From assembly GCF_000146505.1 (NCBI RefSeq), contig NC_017448.1, positions 1,140,001-1,172,000 on the forward strand: a stretch of DNA of 32,000 nucleotides. The letters run 5' to 3'. The first letter of the stretch is position 1; every line of letters starts with the position of its first letter. Below the pieces are notes generated by a model, which saw only the letters and a list, made by a program, of their open reading frames with translations, had not been told where the DNA came from and searched no databases. Below, in pieces: positions 2,652 through 18,530 of this stretch. The translations under genes were made by a program, and so were the position numbers. The DNA is from Fibrobacter succinogenes subsp. succinogenes S85 (GTDB taxonomy: Bacteria > Fibrobacterota > Fibrobacteria > Fibrobacterales > Fibrobacteraceae).

Positions 2652-5098
2652 TATTTCCCCTGAATAATTTTATCGAGCGTGAACACGCAGCGGAAGCCGA
2701 TGCCGTCAGACCAATAGCGCGGATCTTCGTCATCGCGAGCCGTCATGTTCAACTTCTTTTCTTTATCCTTCCAAGAACCACCCTTTAAGACTTTGCTCGT
2801 ACCCCAGAAAGAACCGGTCGGATTGGAACTTTCAATAGAGAACGTGATTGCAAAGTAATTGTCACGAGTCCATTCGGCAACGTTACCCGACATGTCGTAA
2901 AGCCCCCATGCGTTTGGAGCTTTGGACGCTACATCGTGCGGACCATAATCAGCATCTTTCTTCCCCTTCTTAAAGGAATTACCTGCAAATACGGCATACT
3001 TGTTCACGCCCATGGCGTCATCAGAAGTCCAAAGATAGCCATCGTTACTACCGGCGCGGCCCGCAAATTCCCACTGGGCTTCAGTCGGCAAATCTCCACC
3101 GAGGACCTTGCAAGCGTACTGTGCATTTTCCCACGTAATATTCTGGACAGGCTTGTTCGGACCCTTAAATGCAGACTTGTCCGGATAACGCTTTGTAGAA
3201 TCCAGGAGTCCCATAATCTTGTGGAAAAATTCCTGAGTCACTTCTGTTGTGTGGATTGCAAACGGCGACATGGAAACAACCTTGCCACGATAGCGGAACG
3301 AGCCAGAATCAATAAGAGCAACCGTTCCACGAGAAGCGTGTTCAACAACATTAAACACAGGCTCAGTCTTGACCGTATCCGGTGCGGCAGAAGAAGAACT
3401 CGGAGCCACAGACGAAGAAGACTCTGGACCTCTCTTCAACCATTCTTCCACTTCCTTTTCAACGAGAATGTGCTTAGGCAACTTAAATTCACCCTTACCA
3501 AAATAGAGAGAATCGCCCATACGGAAGCCAAGCTTTTCATAGCGGTACTGGTAACGGCCCACGAGGTCGCCTTCCTTGAACACCCATACCGGCTTGTTAT
3601 TTACAAGGAACAAAGTCGTCACAAGAGATGTGTTGCCTTCAGCGAGCAACGTCACAAGAGAATCCATCGGGAAACTTTCAACAACACCCTTCCAGGATAC
3701 TTCAACACGTTCTCGTTCCGCACCAAAGCTGAGGTTCAAAGAATCAATCTTATTAGATTCAACGATTTTCATGATGGTATCGGCAGGAGACTTGCTTGAA
3801 TCTATGACGATAGTCGTATCCGGAGCCTTCATAATTTTTTCAATCGCAACCGGCATCATGTTGATTTGGAACGGGAGCGCCTGGAGGCTATCAAGCTTCG
3901 CATGGAACGCCTTGTACAAGTTGCTCACGACACCGAGCTTCTTTTGACGCCAGAGGTTCTGCGCCTCGGAGCGCTTGAGATTGTAGTGGGCCACATAACC
4001 GCGATAGACCTTTCCTGAATCCGCGAGTCCAAGGGAATCCGCAGGCTTGATGGCCGGATAGAATTTTGAGAACTCCGTCGTATCTACACGCTTAAAGTTC
4101 TTGTCAACTTCAGCGGAGAACGCATCGTAAAGCGCTTCGGTTTCTTCAAGCGTCTGGAGTGCCTGCACCTGTTCAATCGTCACGGACGGGACTACCGGAG
4201 CTGTTTTTGCTTCGGCAACATTAGAAACAGGAACCACGCTTGAACTAGAAGCAGGAGCATCAAAGTCAGGAATTGCGATAACCGAGTTCGAAGAATCTGC
4301 TGAGCTAGAAGAAACGGCACCTGAATCAAGGACTGCTGCACTAGAACTTGATGCCACTGCAGAACTAGATGCAGCTGCATTTGAGTCAACAGTGACCGCA
4401 ACACTCGTATCGGGAGCAGGGAATTTCACGTTGAACGTGAGGACTTCGCCCGACTGGAGGTTTCCAATATCAGCGTACGGAAGTTGATCAGGGGCGTTAA
4501 ACGAGAAAACATAAGTTCCCGGATTCACAGGATAAAGAGACCTGGTTCCCGGTTTCATCTTTGCGCTAAGGGAAACAATTTCCAAGTTCTTTTCATCAGA
4601 CAGGATTTGCACCATTCCCGGGTGGACGCTTTCTTTCAAGACCTCCCACTTACCATTCTTCATGAACAAGAGCTTTGATACCCGTGGAGAGTAAATATAT
4701 TCGGTATCAAAGTAAATGTCCGCTTCGTCCTGGAAAGCTTTGTACTGACGAGAGGCATACAAACGCAAGCCTAGCACTTCACGAGCGCCTAAGTGATTTT
4801 CCTTGAGGTTGTAAGCATGGAGCTTCTTATATTCCTCGGCCTTAGCCTCGCCCGAGAACCAAAGGTACTCCTTCGCAGAGTTTTTATGACGGAGGTACAG
4901 GCGGTTGGGCAGCAACGGGAACACGGGTTCTTGCGATATCGCCACGGAACTGTCCAGGACGATTGCAAAATTGGTCGCATGCTCCAAGGCATTACCGACT
5001 TTAAAATTTTCCGAAGACAATTTAAAGTTACGATCCTCATCGGCCATTGTTAATGCCGGGACCAGCAACAAAAGCGGAAGCAGTCGGGAAAATGTCAT
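2651..5098 (-). CDS. Secreted multidomain protein with C-terminal formylglycine-generating-enzyme (FGE-sulfatase / SUMF1) type domain
   Basis: 815 aa. Signal peptide MTFSRLLPLLLLVPALTMA. Two Ser/Ala-rich linkers (AAASSSAVASSSSAA..., ESSSSVAPSSSSAAP). C-terminal motifs ITWENAQYACKVLGGDLPTEAQWEFAGRAG, NAWGLYDMSGNVAEWT, LKGGSW and GFRCV are typical of the FGE-sulfatase fold. AGGAGA RBS. Confidence 0.85.
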   Translation of the reverse strand: MTFSRLLPLLLLVPALTMADEDRNFKLSSENFKVGNALEHATNFAIVLDSSVAISQEPVFPLLPNRLYLRHKNSAKEYLWFSGEAKAEEYKKLHAYNLKENHLGAREVLGLRLYASRQYKAFQDEADIYFDTEYIYSPRVSKLLFMKNGKWEVLKESVHPGMVQILSDEKNLEIVSLSAKMKPGTRSLYPVNPGTYVFSFNAPDQLPYADIGNLQSGEVLTFNVKFPAPDTSVAVTVDSNAAASSSAVASSSSAAVLDSGAVSSSSADSSNSVIAIPDFDAPASSSSVVPVSNVAEAKTAPVVPSVTIEQVQALQTLEETEALYDAFSAEVDKNFKRVDTTEFSKFYPAIKPADSLGLADSGKVYRGYVAHYNLKRSEAQNLWRQKKLGVVSNLYKAFHAKLDSLQALPFQINMMPVAIEKIMKAPDTTIVIDSSKSPADTIMKIVESNKIDSLNLSFGAERERVEVSWKGVVESFPMDSLVTLLAEGNTSLVTTLFLVNNKPVWVFKEGDLVGRYQYRYEKLGFRMGDSLYFGKGEFKLPKHILVEKEVEEWLKRGPESSSSVAPSSSSAAPDTVKTEPVFNVVEHASRGTVALIDSGSFRYRGKVVSMSPFAIHTTEVTQEFFHKIMGLLDSTKRYPDKSAFKGPNKPVQNITWENAQYACKVLGGDLPTEAQWEFAGRAGSNDGYLWTSDDAMGVNKYAVFAGNSFKKGKKDADYGPHDVASKAPNAWGLYDMSGNVAEWTRDNYFAITFSIESSNPTGSFWGTSKVLKGGSWKDKEKKLNMTARDDEDPRYWSDGIGFRCVFTLDKIIQGK

Positions 5099-10554: not shown

Positions 10555-10580
10555 AACAGCCACGATTTCTCGTGGCTGTT
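10555..10580 (-). terminator. Rho-independent terminator downstream of the lipoprotein gene
   Basis: 10-bp perfect stem AACAGCCACG / CGTGGCTGTT with loop ATTTCT. On the minus strand it is followed by TTCTATCT. It lies 33 nt past the stop at 10613. Confidence 0.6.
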
Positions 10581-10612
10581 CTTCCTCCTCACAATATAAC
10601 TCTCAGACTTCT

Positions 10613-12373
10613 TTAGTTACCACACTGGTCATAGGATCCGAACTTATCCACGACAAATTCGCCATCCACAGGGAACTGAAGTCGCACGGACGTAATTTTT
10701 CCGATGACATCTTCAATCTTTTCACTAGATTCCTCGTCAATATTCTTGAAAGCCTTCCAAGAAACCTTGCCCCACGTCATGTCGTCGGAATATTCAACTT
10801 CGGTATACCAGTATTTATTTGCAGCGGCATCGGTGACAAGAGCGATTCTAATGAAGTTGTAAGTACTGTAATGGATGCAAAAGCCATCCCATGCGCTGAT
10901 ATCAGCCGGTTCATTATTTGAACTTACAGTATTAAAGCCAATCGTCGCAACACTATCCAAATTATAGAGAAAATCATCCGATTTCACGTATGCCGTAAAC
11001 TTATGATGTTTATTCAACAAAGATGCAATGACATTTCCGTTATCATCAGCTTCAACATCGTCGGGGAACCCGAAACTATACGTATCCATTTCATCCGGAG
11101 AGTTGGTCCAAACGCCACCAGCCGTTGCACCGGAAATTCCGAGATCCACATGGTCGCCGTCAACAGATGCATCCCACAAGAAGCTCTTTCCAGACTTGTA
11201 GCTAGAAGACTGCGTCGGCTTCACTTCTTCAAATTCACCGGATTCCTTAACAGAAAGGTTTTCCGGCACCAAGGCGCTAATACGTCTGATTCCGAAACGT
11301 GTTCCAGCCTTGTTTTCCTTTGCAAATTTCAAGCGTACCTTCGCCAAATGCTTCAGGATATCGTCAGAACCATTCAAGACATCGGCGAACACGGCACAGT
11401 TCTTTTCCATATCGTCGTTCTTTGCCAAAGTCATTGTCTTGACACTCTTTTCAAGAGTTCCCGTCGAGGAATCCCCAGGAACAAGTTCCATCACAATATC
11501 CATTTGCGATTCATATTCCAAGCACAGGCCCTTCCACAAGCCAGACACATCGGCCGTATAAATGAAATCCTTGTCATTTTTAGTGGTTTTCCCGGCTACA
11601 AGGAATTCAAGACCAACATCCGGACTTGAACTGGAACCCTCAAAGACTACATTTCCATAAAGGCCTTCACTATAATAGATTCTTTCAGCCATATCCGAAA
11701 AATCACCTTCGCCATCCCAGTCAAAGTAAGCTTCGGAAGAATTTTCAAAGAAAGTCAGCTCGCCAGAAGTACCCTTATCGCCTTTTTCAAAGCCGGTCTC
11801 TACGCGGGACTTGCCATCCTTACCAATCCACATATCCGAGCGAACATAAGGAGTCAGGCGCTGGATGCTAAATTCACCCGTCGAACCCGATTCACCCACA
11901 AAGACCAGCTGCACAGAACGCACCTTCTTGACAACGTCAGAACCATCCGTATCATCCGACTTCTTCATCTTGAAATCTTCCCAAGATGCGCAATGACTTT
12001 CGGATCCAGAATCCTTCATATTCAGGCTGACAAAAGGCACATCCTTATCAACAGAAGAGCTTGCGTAGTCTTCCGTATCCAAGCGAACTTCCACAACAAA
12101 GTCAGACTTGTACGAAACGCACAAACCATCGCCACCCTGAGAAAGATCGGCAGGAGAACCATCCGGGCTGGAAACGTCATAGGCGATACCGGCACGTGCA
12201 AGGTCATCCCCGGACTTTTTCAACGAAACACGGCCGAGCAAAGCGCTCTTGGTATTTTCCAGCTTAATATCGGATCCCTTCATGACATTCCAATCCTTAA
12301 GATTGGCTGTTTCATTCCAGAATGCATTTTTTTTCTTCGGTGGTTCCATAGCTTTTGGAAGCCACGGGATCAT
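10613..12373 (-). CDS. Surface/lipoprotein body with three internal beta-sandwich-like repeats (reading frame lacks its signal peptide; see 12312..12446)
   Basis: 586-codon ORF. Triplicated motif sets GDGLCVSYKSD / WKGLCLEYESQ / WDGFCIHYSTY and VRSVQLVF / KVRLKF / SVRLQF. No signal peptide at the annotated start MIPWLPKAMEPPKKK. Confidence 0.8.
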   Translation of the reverse strand: MIPWLPKAMEPPKKKNAFWNETANLKDWNVMKGSDIKLENTKSALLGRVSLKKSGDDLARAGIAYDVSSPDGSPADLSQGGDGLCVSYKSDFVVEVRLDTEDYASSSVDKDVPFVSLNMKDSGSESHCASWEDFKMKKSDDTDGSDVVKKVRSVQLVFVGESGSTGEFSIQRLTPYVRSDMWIGKDGKSRVETGFEKGDKGTSGELTFFENSSEAYFDWDGEGDFSDMAERIYYSEGLYGNVVFEGSSSSPDVGLEFLVAGKTTKNDKDFIYTADVSGLWKGLCLEYESQMDIVMELVPGDSSTGTLEKSVKTMTLAKNDDMEKNCAVFADVLNGSDDILKHLAKVRLKFAKENKAGTRFGIRRISALVPENLSVKESGEFEEVKPTQSSSYKSGKSFLWDASVDGDHVDLGISGATAGGVWTNSPDEMDTYSFGFPDDVEADDNGNVIASLLNKHHKFTAYVKSDDFLYNLDSVATIGFNTVSSNNEPADISAWDGFCIHYSTYNFIRIALVTDAAANKYWYTEVEYSDDMTWGKVSWKAFKNIDEESSEKIEDVIGKITSVRLQFPVDGEFVVDKFGSYDQCGN

Positions 12374-12446
12374 CTGAACATGCCGTCAATGCAAGGGCTC
12401 CTAACAACCCCAAACAAAAAACGTTCGTTCTATTAAATTTTGTCAT
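12312..12446 (-). pseudogene. Detached 5' fragment: 44-codon frame encoding a lipoprotein signal peptide, out of frame with the 586-codon ORF
   Basis: MTKFNRTNVFCLGLLGALALTACSDDPVASKSYGTTEEKKCILE*. Lipobox LTAC. The ATG at 12446 lies 1 nt after the stop (12448..12450) of the upstream HTH gene. The frame overlaps the long ORF across the A8 run. Confidence 0.6.
12327..12334. repeat. Homopolymer T8 (A8 on the coding strand) at the frame junction of the lipoprotein gene
   Basis: Counted directly: aatgcaTTTTTTTTcttcgg. Confidence 0.9.
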
Positions 12447-12447
12447 A

Positions 12448-13281
12448 TCAGCCCTCATCTTTTTTATGTGTATTTTTTGACAAAGGAAACATCTGCAAGT
12501 TCAAGCGATAAACTTGACATGGTTCCTTACTCGTGTTGGCAATCGCCACAATCTTTCTGCGACAGGAATCCAATTCCCGCACAATCTGTTCATAAGTTTC
12601 GCGATCAATACCCATGGTCACACCGGAAACGTCGCGATCATGGACATCAAACTGATCTATAGCCTTCTGTGCAAAGCCCGCCATTTCACGGTGCATGGAG
12701 CGAACAACCAAAGGCATCACTTCGGAATTACCGACCAAGGCCTTATCCGTCTGCTCATAGACATTTTCGGACTTGCGTTGCAAAATCCCGACTCTCACCA
12801 TAAAATCCAGGGAATTACGGACTTCATCGGCAGTAATCGGGTTCCAGCACATTTGAGCAACATCTTCGGGAGTAGCCCCAGGCATCATCGCCACCAGTTC
12901 ACGCAGAACCGGATTTTTCCAGGATTCAAAATACGTGAACGCATCCCCATCGACCACTCGAATTTTGTTAGCGTCCGCAATATTTCTCATGTTTGCAAAG
13001 GCGGTCTTTTTCGTTTCGTCATCCTTCGCTTGGTTATACCGCACCAAATTGCGAAAATAAGCATTTTCAAAGCCGCCCAAATTCATAGCCGCAGCGACTC
13101 TTTCAATCCCCAACTCGCTAAGGCTGCTTTTCCCTTCACACACCAACTTCAAGTAAGTTGGCGACGTAAAGCCTGCCAGACGCGCGAATTCACGCCACGT
13201 AAACGAGCTAGTCCTCTTACGCTCATCATAAAAATCCTGCATGCAGCAGCGATAATCACGATATTCTGTTACTGGTTTCAT
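12448..13281 (-). CDS. HTH-type putative regulator, TIGR02147 / DUF4423-like paralogous family
   Basis: 277 aa. The N-terminus YRCCMQDFYDERKRTSSFTWREFARLAGFTSPTYLKLVCEGKSSLS looks like the HTH-containing N-terminus of this family as I remember it. Tightly coupled to the downstream lipoprotein signal-peptide ORF. Confidence 0.7.
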   Translation of the reverse strand: MKPVTEYRDYRCCMQDFYDERKRTSSFTWREFARLAGFTSPTYLKLVCEGKSSLSELGIERVAAAMNLGGFENAYFRNLVRYNQAKDDETKKTAFANMRNIADANKIRVVDGDAFTYFESWKNPVLRELVAMMPGATPEDVAQMCWNPITADEVRNSLDFMVRVGILQRKSENVYEQTDKALVGNSEVMPLVVRSMHREMAGFAQKAIDQFDVHDRDVSGVTMGIDRETYEQIVRELDSCRRKIVAIANTSKEPCQVYRLNLQMFPLSKNTHKKDEG

Positions 13282-13329
13282 AAAACCGCCTAATAAGAAA
13301 CTTTTCTCTCCATGACTTTAATATAACAT

Positions 13330-13677: not shown

Positions 13678-15402
13678 ATGAAGAACATTCATAAATACAT
13701 ACTTATCGTTTTAATCTGCGGGCTTATTTTCTTTATTCTCGGCTACCCCTGCCGAGAGCTTTTCCGAATTTCCAGCACAACCGAAGTCCGCATCGTGGCA
13801 GCACTACCCCTATTGTTTGGCATATCGTTTGGATTTGCTGGCGTCCTCGGCTGCGCCATCGCAAACCTCATTGCAGATATCATCTCCGGTTATGACGCAA
13901 TTATCTTCATCCCGGGATTTTTCGTCCAGATTATTTACGGTTACGTCCCCGCCGTGATTTGGAACAGGCTCCGCAAAAACGACAAGAACAAGTTCAAGCT
14001 AGACAAGGTTTACAAGAACGTGCAATACATGCTCATCGTCATTTTCGATTCACTCGCCACCGCATTCATGGTCGTGAGCGTCATCAAGCTCAAGTACGAT
14101 GAGCAGTACTTTTCAATGCTCTCGGCAAACATTTTCTTCAACCAGTTCATTACGATGGTGATTATCGGTATCCCGTACCTAATCTGCGCCTCGCTCTTTC
14201 GCCAACGCAAAATACGCAAGAAGCAGAAAAAATCGACAAAGTTCATCTTTTCCTTTTCACTTAACGAAAAATTCATCTTGTTCTTCCTGGTCACGAGTAT
14301 CGTTATTTCCGTAGCAATCGGTATTACAAGCTACCCAAGTATCGCACTTAAATACGGCGAGGACAACCTCAACCTTTGGAGTTACGTTTACTTTTACATC
14401 GGAGCCATACTGAATATCGGCATTTGGGTTTCACTCGGATTCCTCTACTACATGGAACGCACCGTTACAAAGCCTATCGAAAGCATGAGCGAAATTGCAA
14501 AGACATTCGGCCAGAACACGGACATTTACGAAAGAATCCACAACACGCTGCAGAAATGCCAACAGTACATCTACTTCACCTCCGAAGTCGGGAAACTCGC
14601 CCGTTCATACGAAGAAATAGCAACGGAGCTCGACGAATACGTGAAGCACTTGACCGAAGCCACGGCAAAGCAGCAGAAGGTCCATACGGAGCTTTCCATT
14701 GCAACGACCATCCAGCGAGCATCGCTATCGAAGCCCGTAGAAGTGGATGGTTTCGACAATTACGCCATGATGCGCCCAGCACTTGAAGTGGGTGGTGACT
14801 TTTACGACAACCTCATGATTGACGATGACCATTTAGCTCTCGTAATTGCAGACGTCTCGGGCAAGGGCGTCCCTGCCGCACTCTTTATGATGGTCTCCAA
14901 AATTGTGCTAAGGCACAACCTGCAACAAGGCCTCTCGCCCGCCGAAGCGCTCAACCGCGCAAACGACGAACTCGCCGAACACAACGTTCACGACATGTTT
15001 GTCACATGCCTTTGCGGCGTGCTGAATATCAAGACCGGCCACCTCGTCTACGCCAACGCTGGTCACGAAAAGCCGTTCATAAAGCATGAGAACGGAGATT
15101 TCGAAGTCGCCACTCTCAAAAGCGGATTCGTCCTCGCCGGCATGGAAGGCTACAAGTACAAGGAATTCGAAGCGCAGCTTAAGCCAGGCGACACGATTTT
15201 TACCTACACCGATGGAGTCCCCGAAGCCACAAACGAAAAGGACGAAGAATTCGGCATGGAACGCTTGCAGAAAGTCCTGAACGATTCCAAGGACGACTCA
15301 ATCCGCCTCCTGTGCCGTAAAGTCCGCATGGCGGTCAAGGAATTCGCCGGGAACGCCCCGCAGTTTGACGACATCACGATGCTCGCCTTCAAGATGAAGT
15401 AG
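13678..15402 (+). CDS. Membrane-anchored PP2C-type (SpoIIE/RsbU family) Ser/Thr phosphatase
   Basis: I use the start at ATG 13678 (AAGGAG RBS, MKNIHKYILIV...). The track start at 13510 overlaps the tRNA and its terminator. About 330 aa of N-terminal TM helices precede a C-terminal domain with TTIQRASL, EVGGDFYD, ALVIADVSGKGVPAALFM, NAGHEKPF, YTDGVPEA and FDDITMLAF. Confidence 0.88.
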   Translation: MKNIHKYILIVLICGLIFFILGYPCRELFRISSTTEVRIVAALPLLFGISFGFAGVLGCAIANLIADIISGYDAIIFIPGFFVQIIYGYVPAVIWNRLRKNDKNKFKLDKVYKNVQYMLIVIFDSLATAFMVVSVIKLKYDEQYFSMLSANIFFNQFITMVIIGIPYLICASLFRQRKIRKKQKKSTKFIFSFSLNEKFILFFLVTSIVISVAIGITSYPSIALKYGEDNLNLWSYVYFYIGAILNIGIWVSLGFLYYMERTVTKPIESMSEIAKTFGQNTDIYERIHNTLQKCQQYIYFTSEVGKLARSYEEIATELDEYVKHLTEATAKQQKVHTELSIATTIQRASLSKPVEVDGFDNYAMMRPALEVGGDFYDNLMIDDDHLALVIADVSGKGVPAALFMMVSKIVLRHNLQQGLSPAEALNRANDELAEHNVHDMFVTCLCGVLNIKTGHLVYANAGHEKPFIKHENGDFEVATLKSGFVLAGMEGYKYKEFEAQLKPGDTIFTYTDGVPEATNEKDEEFGMERLQKVLNDSKDDSIRLLCRKVRMAVKEFAGNAPQFDDITMLAFKMK

Positions 15403-15491: not shown

Positions 15492-16679
15492 ATGAATACC
15501 ATTAAACTTACAGCAATGGCATTTGGCCTTGCTGTCGCAAACGTTTTTGCTCAATCCGCCACCGAAGCAACCACCACAGAACAAAAGGGACCTGAATTCA
15601 ATATTTCAGGTAAGGCCGAATTTGACGCATACGCCAACGCACAAACAGGCGATAACCAAAAAATCAATCACAGCTACGCATCCACTATTGACGTAGACTT
15701 CAATGTCAAATTCAACAAAAACTGGTCCGCCTTTGCAGAAATTGAAGCCGATGGAGATGACGAAGCTCCACTCGTTACCTACAAAAAGGCATACGTTCAA
15801 TACAACAGAGGTGACAATTTCACACTCCGTGTGGGTGATTTGACATTCTCAGAGGGCGCATTCTCATTCTACAATTATGATGACGCCGGGATCTACGCCG
15901 CAGGCATGAGAGAACACGACATTCGCGGTCTAGACTTGCAGCTATACGGGTTGCAATTCGGTGTGGGCTTTGGCCGTGGAAACAACGACGTCTCTTGTCT
16001 GAACTCGGAATCATTTCCTTGCGATTACGGCGAATCCAAAAGTTACGATGTCCACTTAGCTTACCAATTTGACATTGCAGGCCAAACATTCCGTCCGTTC
16101 GTCCACTACAAAAGCTGGCAAATTAAAGATGCCAACGAACTCCATGCCGGTTTGCATACAGATCTTTTATTAGGTCCCTTTGACATTCACGCCGTTTACG
16201 GCTTACATGCAGACCGCTTGAAAAAATCCTACCCCAACGCCACGCACGCCTTGTTAGCCGAGCCCACATTGAATCTTGGCCGCGTGTTCATCAAAACAGG
16301 CATATTCTTCGCTTTCTTTGACGACGACATGGATAAGGCAACTATCCATGAAACCAGCGCTACTTATTATGAAATCCCTGAATACAAGTTCGCCTACGGC
16401 GAAGTCGATTTCAAGGCCCTTGACGTATTCACGGTCGGTCTCATAGGTGAATGGCATACCAACACGCTCGACAACTCGAAGGAACTCGGCTCTGTCAATT
16501 TCGGCACCCGACTTTACTTCAACCCCGTCAAGAATCTTGATATGACCGGTTTCGTAAAGGCCATCATCCCCGTGGGCGACGACTGGAAAAAGGATGGACA
16601 TGAAAAATGGGTATCCACAAACGATTACAACAATGACGTAACGTTCAACATCGGTCTTGAAACGGTATTCAAGTTCTAA
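15492..16679 (+). CDS. Porin-like outer-membrane beta-barrel protein
   Basis: 395 aa. Signal peptide MNTIKLTAMAFGLAVANVFAQS, alternating amphipathic strands, aromatic C-terminus ETVFKF. AAGGAG RBS. Confidence 0.72.
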   Translation: MNTIKLTAMAFGLAVANVFAQSATEATTTEQKGPEFNISGKAEFDAYANAQTGDNQKINHSYASTIDVDFNVKFNKNWSAFAEIEADGDDEAPLVTYKKAYVQYNRGDNFTLRVGDLTFSEGAFSFYNYDDAGIYAAGMREHDIRGLDLQLYGLQFGVGFGRGNNDVSCLNSESFPCDYGESKSYDVHLAYQFDIAGQTFRPFVHYKSWQIKDANELHAGLHTDLLLGPFDIHAVYGLHADRLKKSYPNATHALLAEPTLNLGRVFIKTGIFFAFFDDDMDKATIHETSATYYEIPEYKFAYGEVDFKALDVFTVGLIGEWHTNTLDNSKELGSVNFGTRLYFNPVKNLDMTGFVKAIIPVGDDWKKDGHEKWVSTNDYNNDVTFNIGLETVFKF

Positions 16680-16757: not shown

Positions 16758-18530
16758 ATGACCGTCCGCGCCGATGTTACCCCTGATAATCCGTCCCGTG
16801 CAGAAATCGACTTTTCACGAATAGCCAACTTACTTGACGACAATTGGCTCGTCTGGATGAACAGATCCTGGTATTTCGACAACGACACCACAGGCTCCGT
16901 CCTGCGTGAAGTTGACGCGGTTCTTTACCATCGCAAGTACGGCCTCCTCCTTGTCGAATGCAAAGCCGGGAAAATTTCCGCCCGAACACAAAACCAAACA
17001 GGCAATGTTGTCTGGATGCAAAGCGGAAAGTCCATGGCGAAACCGCCACACATGCAAGTCGCCTCGCTAATCGCCCCGCTACACGAATACATGAAACTAT
17101 TGCTCAAAGCACCCCAGAACAAAGAATTCTACAGAGTGCGCGTACAATGGGCCGTATGTTTCAGCGACATGGAGAACATGGAAGGCATTCCTCTCTCGGA
17201 AATTCCGAGAAAACGAGCCCTTTTAAAGCCCGACATGCAAGACGTGAACAAGTTTGAAGAACGTTTAATCGAAATTCTTCAAACCCCCGAAGAATCCCAT
17301 GGCGGGCGCCCCTACCCGAACGACTATCTTGACGAAGATGCCTTCTTTGCGCTCCGCAACTTTTTTGACGGCATCGGCGACATGCAAACCGCCGCAGACG
17401 CGCTCCGCGAAGACAGCTACTATTCCGAGCAAGCCACAGAAATGCAGCAGATGATGATGGACTCCATCTCCCGGAACAACCGCGTGAGAATTGAAGGCGT
17501 GGCAGGCTCCGGAAAATCGCGCATGGTCGTCTGGGAAGCTTTGCGACTTTCCAAAATCGGTAAAAGCGTCGCCATCGCCTGCTACAACGACCTGCTCGCC
17601 GAAGAACTACGCAAAGAAGTGGAATCCGCCCTCGCCAAAGAACGCAAAATCGTCACCGCCAAATACGGGCGCGACGGAGGAGTCGGTTTTGGGAAAATCG
17701 AAGTCAACGTTTACGCCGACTGGTGCAAAAAATACGCCAAGGCTGTAAAAGAACTGCCAAAAATGGGCGCCGACAAATCGCAGTATTACGACAAGGAACT
17801 GCCCAAAGCATTCACCAACGCCCAGACAAAACTGTTCAAGGACAAGAAGCAGCGCGAAAAGATGTTCTTTGACGCCGTCATTATCGACGAAGCGCAGGAC
17901 TTTGCCAGCGAATGGATTGACTCGCTCATAGGCCTCTTGCGCGATAAGGAGCGCGGATACGCACGTATTTTCTATGACCCGGCACAGCGACTTTACGCCA
18001 AGAGAAACGGCATTGAAAACGCACAAGTGAAAGCGATGCCCGTCATGGTTCTCAAGCGAGCATTCCGCAACACCAAGAAAATTCTGGAGTGGATTTACAA
18101 GAACACCAACATTCGCTTGCAGAGCTATAACAACACGCCGCAAGGCTACCCTGTCAAGGAATATCGCTATAGAGACTCATCGGAACAAGAGCAGTTACTG
18201 CTCAACAGCTACAATGAACTCGTTCGAAAGTACGAACTCAAGCCATCCGAAATTCTCGTCGTTTCCATGCATAGCGAAGCCAGATCCGGCATCAAGAACA
18301 TTTCTAACGACACCTTTGCATGGAACAAGGTCGGCGGCAAGAAACTCATCCAAGATAAGGTAAACATCGTGAGTGCCTACCGCATCAAGGGGCTCGACAC
18401 AATGGCGGTAATCCTCGTCGATGTGGAAGAACCGACCGAGACAAGCAAGCGCGAAGACTGGAAACGCCTTCTGCTCGTTGGCGCCACCCGCGCCAAGAAA
18501 CTGCTGACCGTCATCCGAAAGAAAGCGTAA
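16758..18530 (+). CDS. NERD (PD-(D/E)xK nuclease-related) domain fused to a superfamily-1 UvrD-like helicase/ATPase
   Basis: 590 aa. NERD core EVDAVLYHRKYGLLLVECKAGKI followed by W...KPPHMQV. Helicase motifs GVAGSGKSR (Walker A), VIIDEAQDF (Walker B), FYDPAQRLY, SAYRIKGLDTMAVILV and LLLVGATRAKKLL (motif VI). Confidence 0.88.
   Translation: MTVRADVTPDNPSRAEIDFSRIANLLDDNWLVWMNRSWYFDNDTTGSVLREVDAVLYHRKYGLLLVECKAGKISARTQNQTGNVVWMQSGKSMAKPPHMQVASLIAPLHEYMKLLLKAPQNKEFYRVRVQWAVCFSDMENMEGIPLSEIPRKRALLKPDMQDVNKFEERLIEILQTPEESHGGRPYPNDYLDEDAFFALRNFFDGIGDMQTAADALREDSYYSEQATEMQQMMMDSISRNNRVRIEGVAGSGKSRMVVWEALRLSKIGKSVAIACYNDLLAEELRKEVESALAKERKIVTAKYGRDGGVGFGKIEVNVYADWCKKYAKAVKELPKMGADKSQYYDKELPKAFTNAQTKLFKDKKQREKMFFDAVIIDEAQDFASEWIDSLIGLLRDKERGYARIFYDPAQRLYAKRNGIENAQVKAMPVMVLKRAFRNTKKILEWIYKNTNIRLQSYNNTPQGYPVKEYRYRDSSEQEQLLLNSYNELVRKYELKPSEILVVSMHSEARSGIKNISNDTFAWNKVGGKKLIQDKVNIVSAYRIKGLDTMAVILVDVEEPTETSKREDWKRLLLVGATRAKKLLTVIRKKA

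Follow-up and report, generated by a model that had tools for sequence, protein, structure and literature searches.

A private A8 homopolymer splits a conserved lipoprotein gene in one genome record of Fibrobacter succinogenes S85

Introduction

Phase-variable genes switched by homopolymers include the poly-G and poly-C genes of Neisseria, Haemophilus and Campylobacter and the poly-A lipoprotein genes of Mycoplasma. Programmed transcriptional slippage is exemplified by the A9 run of Thermus thermophilus dnaX, the T9 run of Shigella mxiE and the transposases of insertion sequence (IS) elements; programmed sites are conserved and usually consist of runs of at least nine A or of defined heptamers with stimulators. 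No kind of consensus error is commoner than insertions and deletions (indels) in homopolymers. Here we examine a run of eight A (A8) in a 32,000-nucleotide (nt) stretch of the genome of Fibrobacter succinogenes subsp. succinogenes S85 (NC_017448.1, positions 1,140,001 to 1,172,000; hereafter the window), where a lipoprotein signal peptide and the corresponding mature domain are encoded in different frames. We found that A8 is private to this one record, that the tract is A7 in every other F. succinogenes sequence read, and that the gene with A7 is an ordinary single gene for a conserved lipoprotein of 610 amino acids (aa).

Results

Two reading frames meet at the A8 tract

All coordinates are positions in the window unless stated otherwise, and the genome is a single contig of 3,843,004 bp. 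The genes described here lie on the minus strand. An ATG at 12446, with a GAGGG Shine-Dalgarno-like sequence 6-10 nt upstream, opens a 44-codon open reading frame (ORF), MTKFNRTNVFCLGLLGALALTACSDDPVASKSYGTTEEKKCILE*, which contains the lipobox L-T-A-C and stops at 12312. This 5' fragment (12312..12446) encodes the lipoprotein signal peptide with its lipobox, followed by the first 15 residues of the mature protein, together equal to residues 1-38 of the public 610-aa protein P0096, before it runs out of frame to a TGA. The 3' fragment is a 586-codon ORF (10613..12373) encoding the mature domain, which from its residue 16 (N) onward equals P0096 residues 40-610. The 586-codon ORF lacks a signal peptide, and no purine-rich ribosome-binding site was seen upstream of ATG 12373 or of ATG 12349.

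The two frames overlap across the A8 homopolymer at 12327..12334 (T8 on the plus strand), which is embedded as GAAG-AAAAAAAA-TGC. With one A fewer at the tract the frames join as ...GTTEEKNAFWNETANL... and yield a fused product of 610 aa which is identical, letter for letter, to P0096. An initial annotation of the window, made from its letters alone, had described this layout, and each of its elements can be seen in the sequence: the ATG one nt past the stop of an upstream helix-turn-helix (HTH) gene (TGA at 12450-12448), the textbook signal peptide with its LTAC lipobox, the 586-codon ORF without a signal peptide in the other frame, the overlap of both frames across A8 and the lipoprotein of about 610 aa gained on going from A8 to A7. 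Its frame arithmetic is also correct on the sequence: the frame is restored by a +1 shift and not by a -1 shift.

We scanned the genome for the same geometry, a short frame followed by a homopolymer of at least 7 and a long frame elsewhere, and found 149 matches at 1,851 tracts compared to 133 at random control positions. Runs of A8 or T8 are common, with 450 in 3.84 Mb. The ORF geometry at the tract is thus on its own no more than chance, and the scan was uninformative and could not resolve other homopolymer frameshifts in the assembly, because junctions between neighbouring genes dominate its matches. The present case stands out from chance because the join reproduces a conserved protein with a conserved motif across the tract.

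The fused frame is the conserved form of the gene

Full-length orthologues were found in 14 of 60 other Fibrobacter genomes, at 57-97% identity. All 14 consist of one open frame of 616-644 codons (stop to stop) and contain a signal peptide, a lipobox and the junction motif GTTEE(K/R)N(A/G)FW; in the form GTTEE(K/R)NAFW this motif is conserved across the genus and spans the tract. Residues C23, G34, T35, T36, E37, N40, A41 and W43 were invariant in an alignment of 29 homologues, and 95 homologous cluster representatives from a large protein collection were nearly all 596-632 aa long with a lipobox. The locus is an ordinary single gene encoding a lipoprotein of 610 aa, and the fused frame is its conserved form, as the initial annotation had supposed; P0096, CP001792.1, contigs from natural strains and the 14 orthologues all fully support it.

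Some gene starts are miscalled in this family. Public annotations of the intact gene, at the CP001792.1 locus (3001-4833 of the fetched stretch) and in related records, include 591-aa forms starting 'MTACSDD...', for which the lipobox Leu codon, inside the signal peptide, has been read as the start, and some metagenome-assembled genomes (MAGs) contain 554-565-aa forms starting at an internal Met. Both kinds of miscall conceal the lipoprotein signal. The 554-565-aa homologues had led us to suspect recurrent frameshifts in other strains; the one case which was fetched (L060) has an open 625-codon frame and represents a start-codon miscall.

A8 is found in one record only

CP001792.1 is the other complete F. 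succinogenes S85 assembly (PMC3079729). It encodes P0096, which is indexed in 58 blocks of the sequence collection. In 56 of these blocks the contigs are 2-5 kb long, and at least 56 independent run assemblies encode the intact protein. Of the 57 contigs on which P0096 is recorded, the longest has 3,842,635 bp; the truncated 578-aa form is recorded on one contig only, which is this genome. Neither a 586- or 578-aa product nor the 44/48-aa peptide was recorded from any other sample.

The tract itself was read in 10 S85 loci (CP001792.1 and nine contigs from run assemblies) and all 10 carry A7. These loci are identical to the window over 2.7-7.8 kb except for the missing A and, at the CP001792.1 locus only, base 14619; within the lipoprotein gene the extra A is the sole indel between the window and CP001792.1. 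Wild-type S85 genomic DNA has also been resequenced by Illumina to 398x and mapped to CP001792, giving eight variants in total with frequencies down to 36% (Wu et al., PMC5442110), and none of these eight lies at the tract, which we computed to be CP001792 705,636-705,642.

The same length was found in natural F. succinogenes: A7 is present in 12 of 12 contigs, from rumen metagenomes and MAGs, that are 94-99% identical to the window. Ten loci encoding an identical TIGR02147 protein, the product of the upstream gene, were fetched (CP001792.1 and nine rumen-metagenome contigs, again 94-99% identical) and were all A7; the 610-aa gene was called in the eight metagenome contigs in which the whole gene is present, and the ninth (L057) ends inside it. 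A pattern scan which allowed A6-A10 found one Joint Genome Institute (JGI) metagenome contig and one MAG, both A7. The initial annotation had suggested comparing tract length in other isolates and metagenome bins, and this gave A7 in 22 of 22 other contigs of the species. In the 14 orthologues from other species the A-run was 7 in three and 2-5 in eleven, and never 8, with a synonymous AAG or AGA replacing AAA where the run is shorter. A8 is therefore confined to this one record, and the homopolymer is not conserved across species.

The two S85 genomes represent different laboratory sub-lineages

When the two S85 assemblies were compared over approximately 39 kb, four differences were found. 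Apart from the extra A on the gene strand (T on the plus strand) at 12327-12334, the window has A where CP001792.1 has G at 14619 (I370 vs M370 in a PP2C/SpoIIE phosphatase gene) and at 17613 (K286 vs E286 in a NERD-helicase), and it contains 30 extra in-frame bases at 15838-15867 in a porin-like gene (395 vs 385 aa). Natural contigs have G at both 14619 and 17613, and the 30 bp are present in most contigs covering the site, from which it follows that both A's are derived in the lineage of this record and that the loss of the 30 bp is derived in the CP001792 lineage. The 395-aa form was seen in rumen metagenome contigs and in run SRR29904083, and the CP001792 lineage appears to have lost 10 codons, or to have an assembly gap there.

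A single 5,645-bp contig of run SRR29904083 agrees exactly with this record in all three neighbouring proteins (14619A, the 30 bp and 17613A). The two public "S85" genomes are thus distinct laboratory sub-lineages, which in this region differ at about one position every 10 kb. When the 586-aa ORF, the 48-aa ORF and the 1771-aa UvrA neighbour were looked up, no contig of SRR29904083 was matched. This run, which shares the record's three other alleles, is without a recorded broken product, which is weak evidence, as its assembly is fragmented and the index is limited to called products.

The protein is a predicted lipoprotein with beta-sandwich modules

The N-terminus, MTKFNRTNVFCLGLLGALALTAC, has the features of a lipoprotein signal, with K3 and R6, a hydrophobic core and L-T-A-C. 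The lipobox cysteine C23, invariant in the 29 homologues, is in this record in another frame than the mature domain. Profile searches of the lipoprotein body gave no Pfam, NCBIfam or PDB sequence match. The 44-aa peptide did match a factor-H-binding-protein profile (E = 0.012, 14.8 bits vs a cut-off of 200), and we attribute this to similarity of signal peptides only.

The AlphaFold model (mean predicted local distance difference test, pLDDT, 77.9; predicted template modelling score, pTM, 0.73) is nearly all beta-strand and comprises three repeated beta-sandwich modules. Foldseek single-domain matches included CBM11 1v0a (probability 1.0, template modelling (TM) score 0.59 by target) and 7zkq_A (0.52). 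SGBP-B 7kwb was also matched, with E = 7.7e-7. The matches were of good significance, but multi-domain or whole-chain TM-scores were low (0.15-0.2). Within the mature domain there are three Cys-containing repeats (GLCVSY...VRSVQLVF, GLCLEY...KVRLKF and GFCIHY...SVRLQF), which are modelled as beta-sandwiches that resemble CBM11 and CIA30-like folds. This model makes a glycan-binding surface lipoprotein a reasonable guess.

The gene belongs to a TIGR02147-lipoprotein cassette

The upstream gene (12448..13281, minus strand) encodes a putative HTH regulator and matches TIGR02147 over its full length (304.4 bits vs a cut-off of 50) as well as DUF4423 (E = 1.9e-26). It is coupled to the lipoprotein gene, with one base from its TGA stop to the ATG. 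The genome contains 40 TIGR02147 matches, 39 of which are full-length, and for 37 of these 39 a gene with a lipoprotein signal peptide starts -50 to +28 nt from the stop (35 found by regular expression and 2 by eye). The cassette in the window is the only interrupted one among the 37. Further examples of TIGR02147 loci are C1:1136656-1137462 and C1:1189169-1189969, and across loci the stop and start often overlap.

Many of the cassette lipoproteins share a motif after the lipobox Cys, C-S-(D/E)-x-K-(V/I)-A-G-(G/T)-x-x-E-(E/T)-x-N, which in a loose form occurs in 20 of 35. The motif may serve in sorting or recognition. The A-tract falls inside this gene's counterpart of the motif, GTTEEKN.

Transcript-sized contigs from the runs span both genes of the cassette. 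Those of 2.7-2.95 kb start at 13274-13311, shortly after a promoter-like site (TTGTCT-17-TATATT with an upstream TG; 13348-13320, minus strand), which is a consensus match only and lies 5' of the two-gene unit. Half of the run contigs (5/10) end at 10575-10584, and most of the 2.7-2.95 kb contigs end at or soon past an inverted repeat, AACAGCCACG-AGAAAT-CGTGGCTGTT (10580-10553, minus strand), which can be read directly in the sequence 33 nt past the stop codon. The terminator scan did not list this repeat, as its tail contains too few T; it is likely to be a terminator hairpin. We infer from the size and ends of the run contigs only that they derive from RNA, and their extents fit a two-gene transcript.

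Outside the window, the longest G/C run flagged by the genome scan was a G10 tract at C1:3285938-3285947, with 246 open codons upstream and 514 downstream in another frame. This locus is possibly a frameshifted or phase-variable gene.

Discussion

The initial annotation had offered four explanations for A8: that the sequence is in error, that the gene was recently inactivated by mutation, that the record shows a phase-variable gene in its OFF state, and that the site is decoded by transcriptional slippage or +1 frameshifting. The first two survive our comparison, and the last two are disfavoured because there is no length polymorphism in 22 contigs, the tract is not conserved and no relative has the two-frame layout. 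It is very probable that the cause is either an error in the record or a real mutation private to it. Taken separately, we consider it about an even bet that the homopolymer was miscounted, and the extra A introduced, when this assembly was sequenced or finished. S85 DNA would in that case carry A7 at the tract and the 610-aa protein would be made normally from a single frame; the predicted lipoprotein would be exported and held in the envelope through a lipid at Cys23. Two points weigh against such a miscount. The record is accurate at the three other differing sites (14619, 15838-15867 and 17613), all of which are reproduced in SRR29904083; it therefore represents a genuine, distinct S85 sub-lineage in which a real A8 is plausible. 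In addition, an 8-base run is short for a miscount under multi-fold Sanger coverage. The alternative of a replication slippage from A7 to A8 in the sequenced S85 sub-lineage, which would have produced a recent pseudogene with no programmed role, is a real possibility although it falls short of an even chance. The allele would be null: the signal peptide would end up on a 44-aa dead-end peptide, and the 586-codon remainder, with neither signal peptide nor Shine-Dalgarno sequence at ATG 12373 or ATG 12349, would give at most a cytoplasmic product. Tracts such as A7 are typically prone to +1 slippage, the three other local differences from CP001792.1 are confirmed by an independent run and so place the DNA source in a diverged sub-lineage, and both private substitutions are G>A transitions which are derived relative to natural strains. 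However, no other sample is recorded with the 586- or 578-aa product, the intact product is recorded in 57 contigs, and even the run which shares the alleles of this lineage (SRR29904083) is not recorded with the broken product, weak as that last observation is. The initial annotation had held that uniform A7 in the raw data would mean a simple assembly error; at the level of assemblies A7 is indeed uniform outside this record. That the extra base is in the record and not in the DNA is only slightly more likely than a private mutation.

The two remaining explanations would give the tract a function. If S85 cultures were a mixture of A7 (ON) and A8 (OFF) cells through slipped-strand phase variation, the record would have caught the OFF state, and the position of the homopolymer, just past the signal peptide of a probable surface lipoprotein, is the classical layout for such a switch. 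At least one A7 to A8 event may also have occurred, and assemblies drop minority variants, so that a small OFF subpopulation could escape them. Against this, A7 was found in all 22 other contigs of the species (10 from S85 and 12 natural) across approximately 5% divergence; the synonymous AAG and AGA codons which break the tract in other species argue that there is no selection for a mutable repeat; the 398x resequencing listed variants down to 36% frequency and none at the tract; and of the 37 paralogous cassettes in the genome only this one is interrupted. Contingency genes are recognised by length polymorphism within a species and by maintenance of the repeat in relatives, and we found neither. 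Phase variation is therefore highly improbable, and the chance that the A7/A8 tract is a weak contingency locus, with minority A8 (OFF) cells in S85 cultures of which one became fixed in the record, is slimmer still; if true, Fibrobacter would gain its first described phase-variable envelope protein. Programmed recoding, in which A8 would be real and the full-length protein would be made by transcriptional slippage with the loss of one A or by +1 frameshifting on AAA-AAA-T, is scarcely credible. By sequence arithmetic a +1 shift would restore the frame. RNA polymerases slip at a low rate on A/T runs of at least 8, so a real A8 would give rise to a small fraction of A7 transcripts that partly rescue the gene, which would be leakiness and not design. 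However, the two-frame layout is found in no relative (14 orthologues and 12 natural contigs), the slippery run is not conserved, and CP001792.1, from the same strain, encodes the protein in one frame; recoding would predict that the orthologues share both the two frames and the slippery sequence. None of the features of programmed sites is evident at the tract, although no search for stimulators was made.

In this record the locus should be annotated as a single gene with a frameshift, or its tract corrected to A7, and not as a 578/586-aa cytoplasmic protein accompanied by an orphan peptide. In proteomics, transcriptomics or metabolic modelling based on the gene models of the record, the signal peptide goes missing and the predicted envelope location along with it. 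Should the extra base be real, a conserved surface lipoprotein would be absent from one laboratory lineage of the type strain, which could matter when adhesion or cellulose-degradation phenotypes are compared across laboratories. The case offers no new mechanism and is of annotation interest only.

Compared to described glycan-binding lipoproteins, such as SGBP-B of Bacteroides thetaiotaomicron (7kwb), and to CBM11 (1v0a), the intact protein is alike in having an N-terminal lipobox followed by an acidic stretch and in its modelled beta-sandwich modules. It differs in that it has no sequence-family match, a low whole-chain TM-score and no SusC/SusD context, and in that its partner gene is a regulator-like TIGR02147 gene. 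The locus resembles phase-variable contingency loci in that a probable surface lipoprotein gene has a homopolymer in its 5' part, where one base switches the frame, whereas here the tract is unconserved and without polymorphism in 22 contigs, its normal length is A7 and the paralogues are uninterrupted. As in programmed transcriptional slippage, an A run lies where two overlapping frames meet, but the run is shorter than in the known cases and neither relatives nor CP001792.1 have the two-frame layout. The closest likeness is to homopolymer discrepancies between assemblies of one strain, which equally consist of a single-base difference in an A/T run, in one record only, that splits a gene intact elsewhere, in this case in CP001792.1 and in all relatives. 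We see no substantive difference from such discrepancies; what is unusual here is that the other local differences of the record are demonstrably real.

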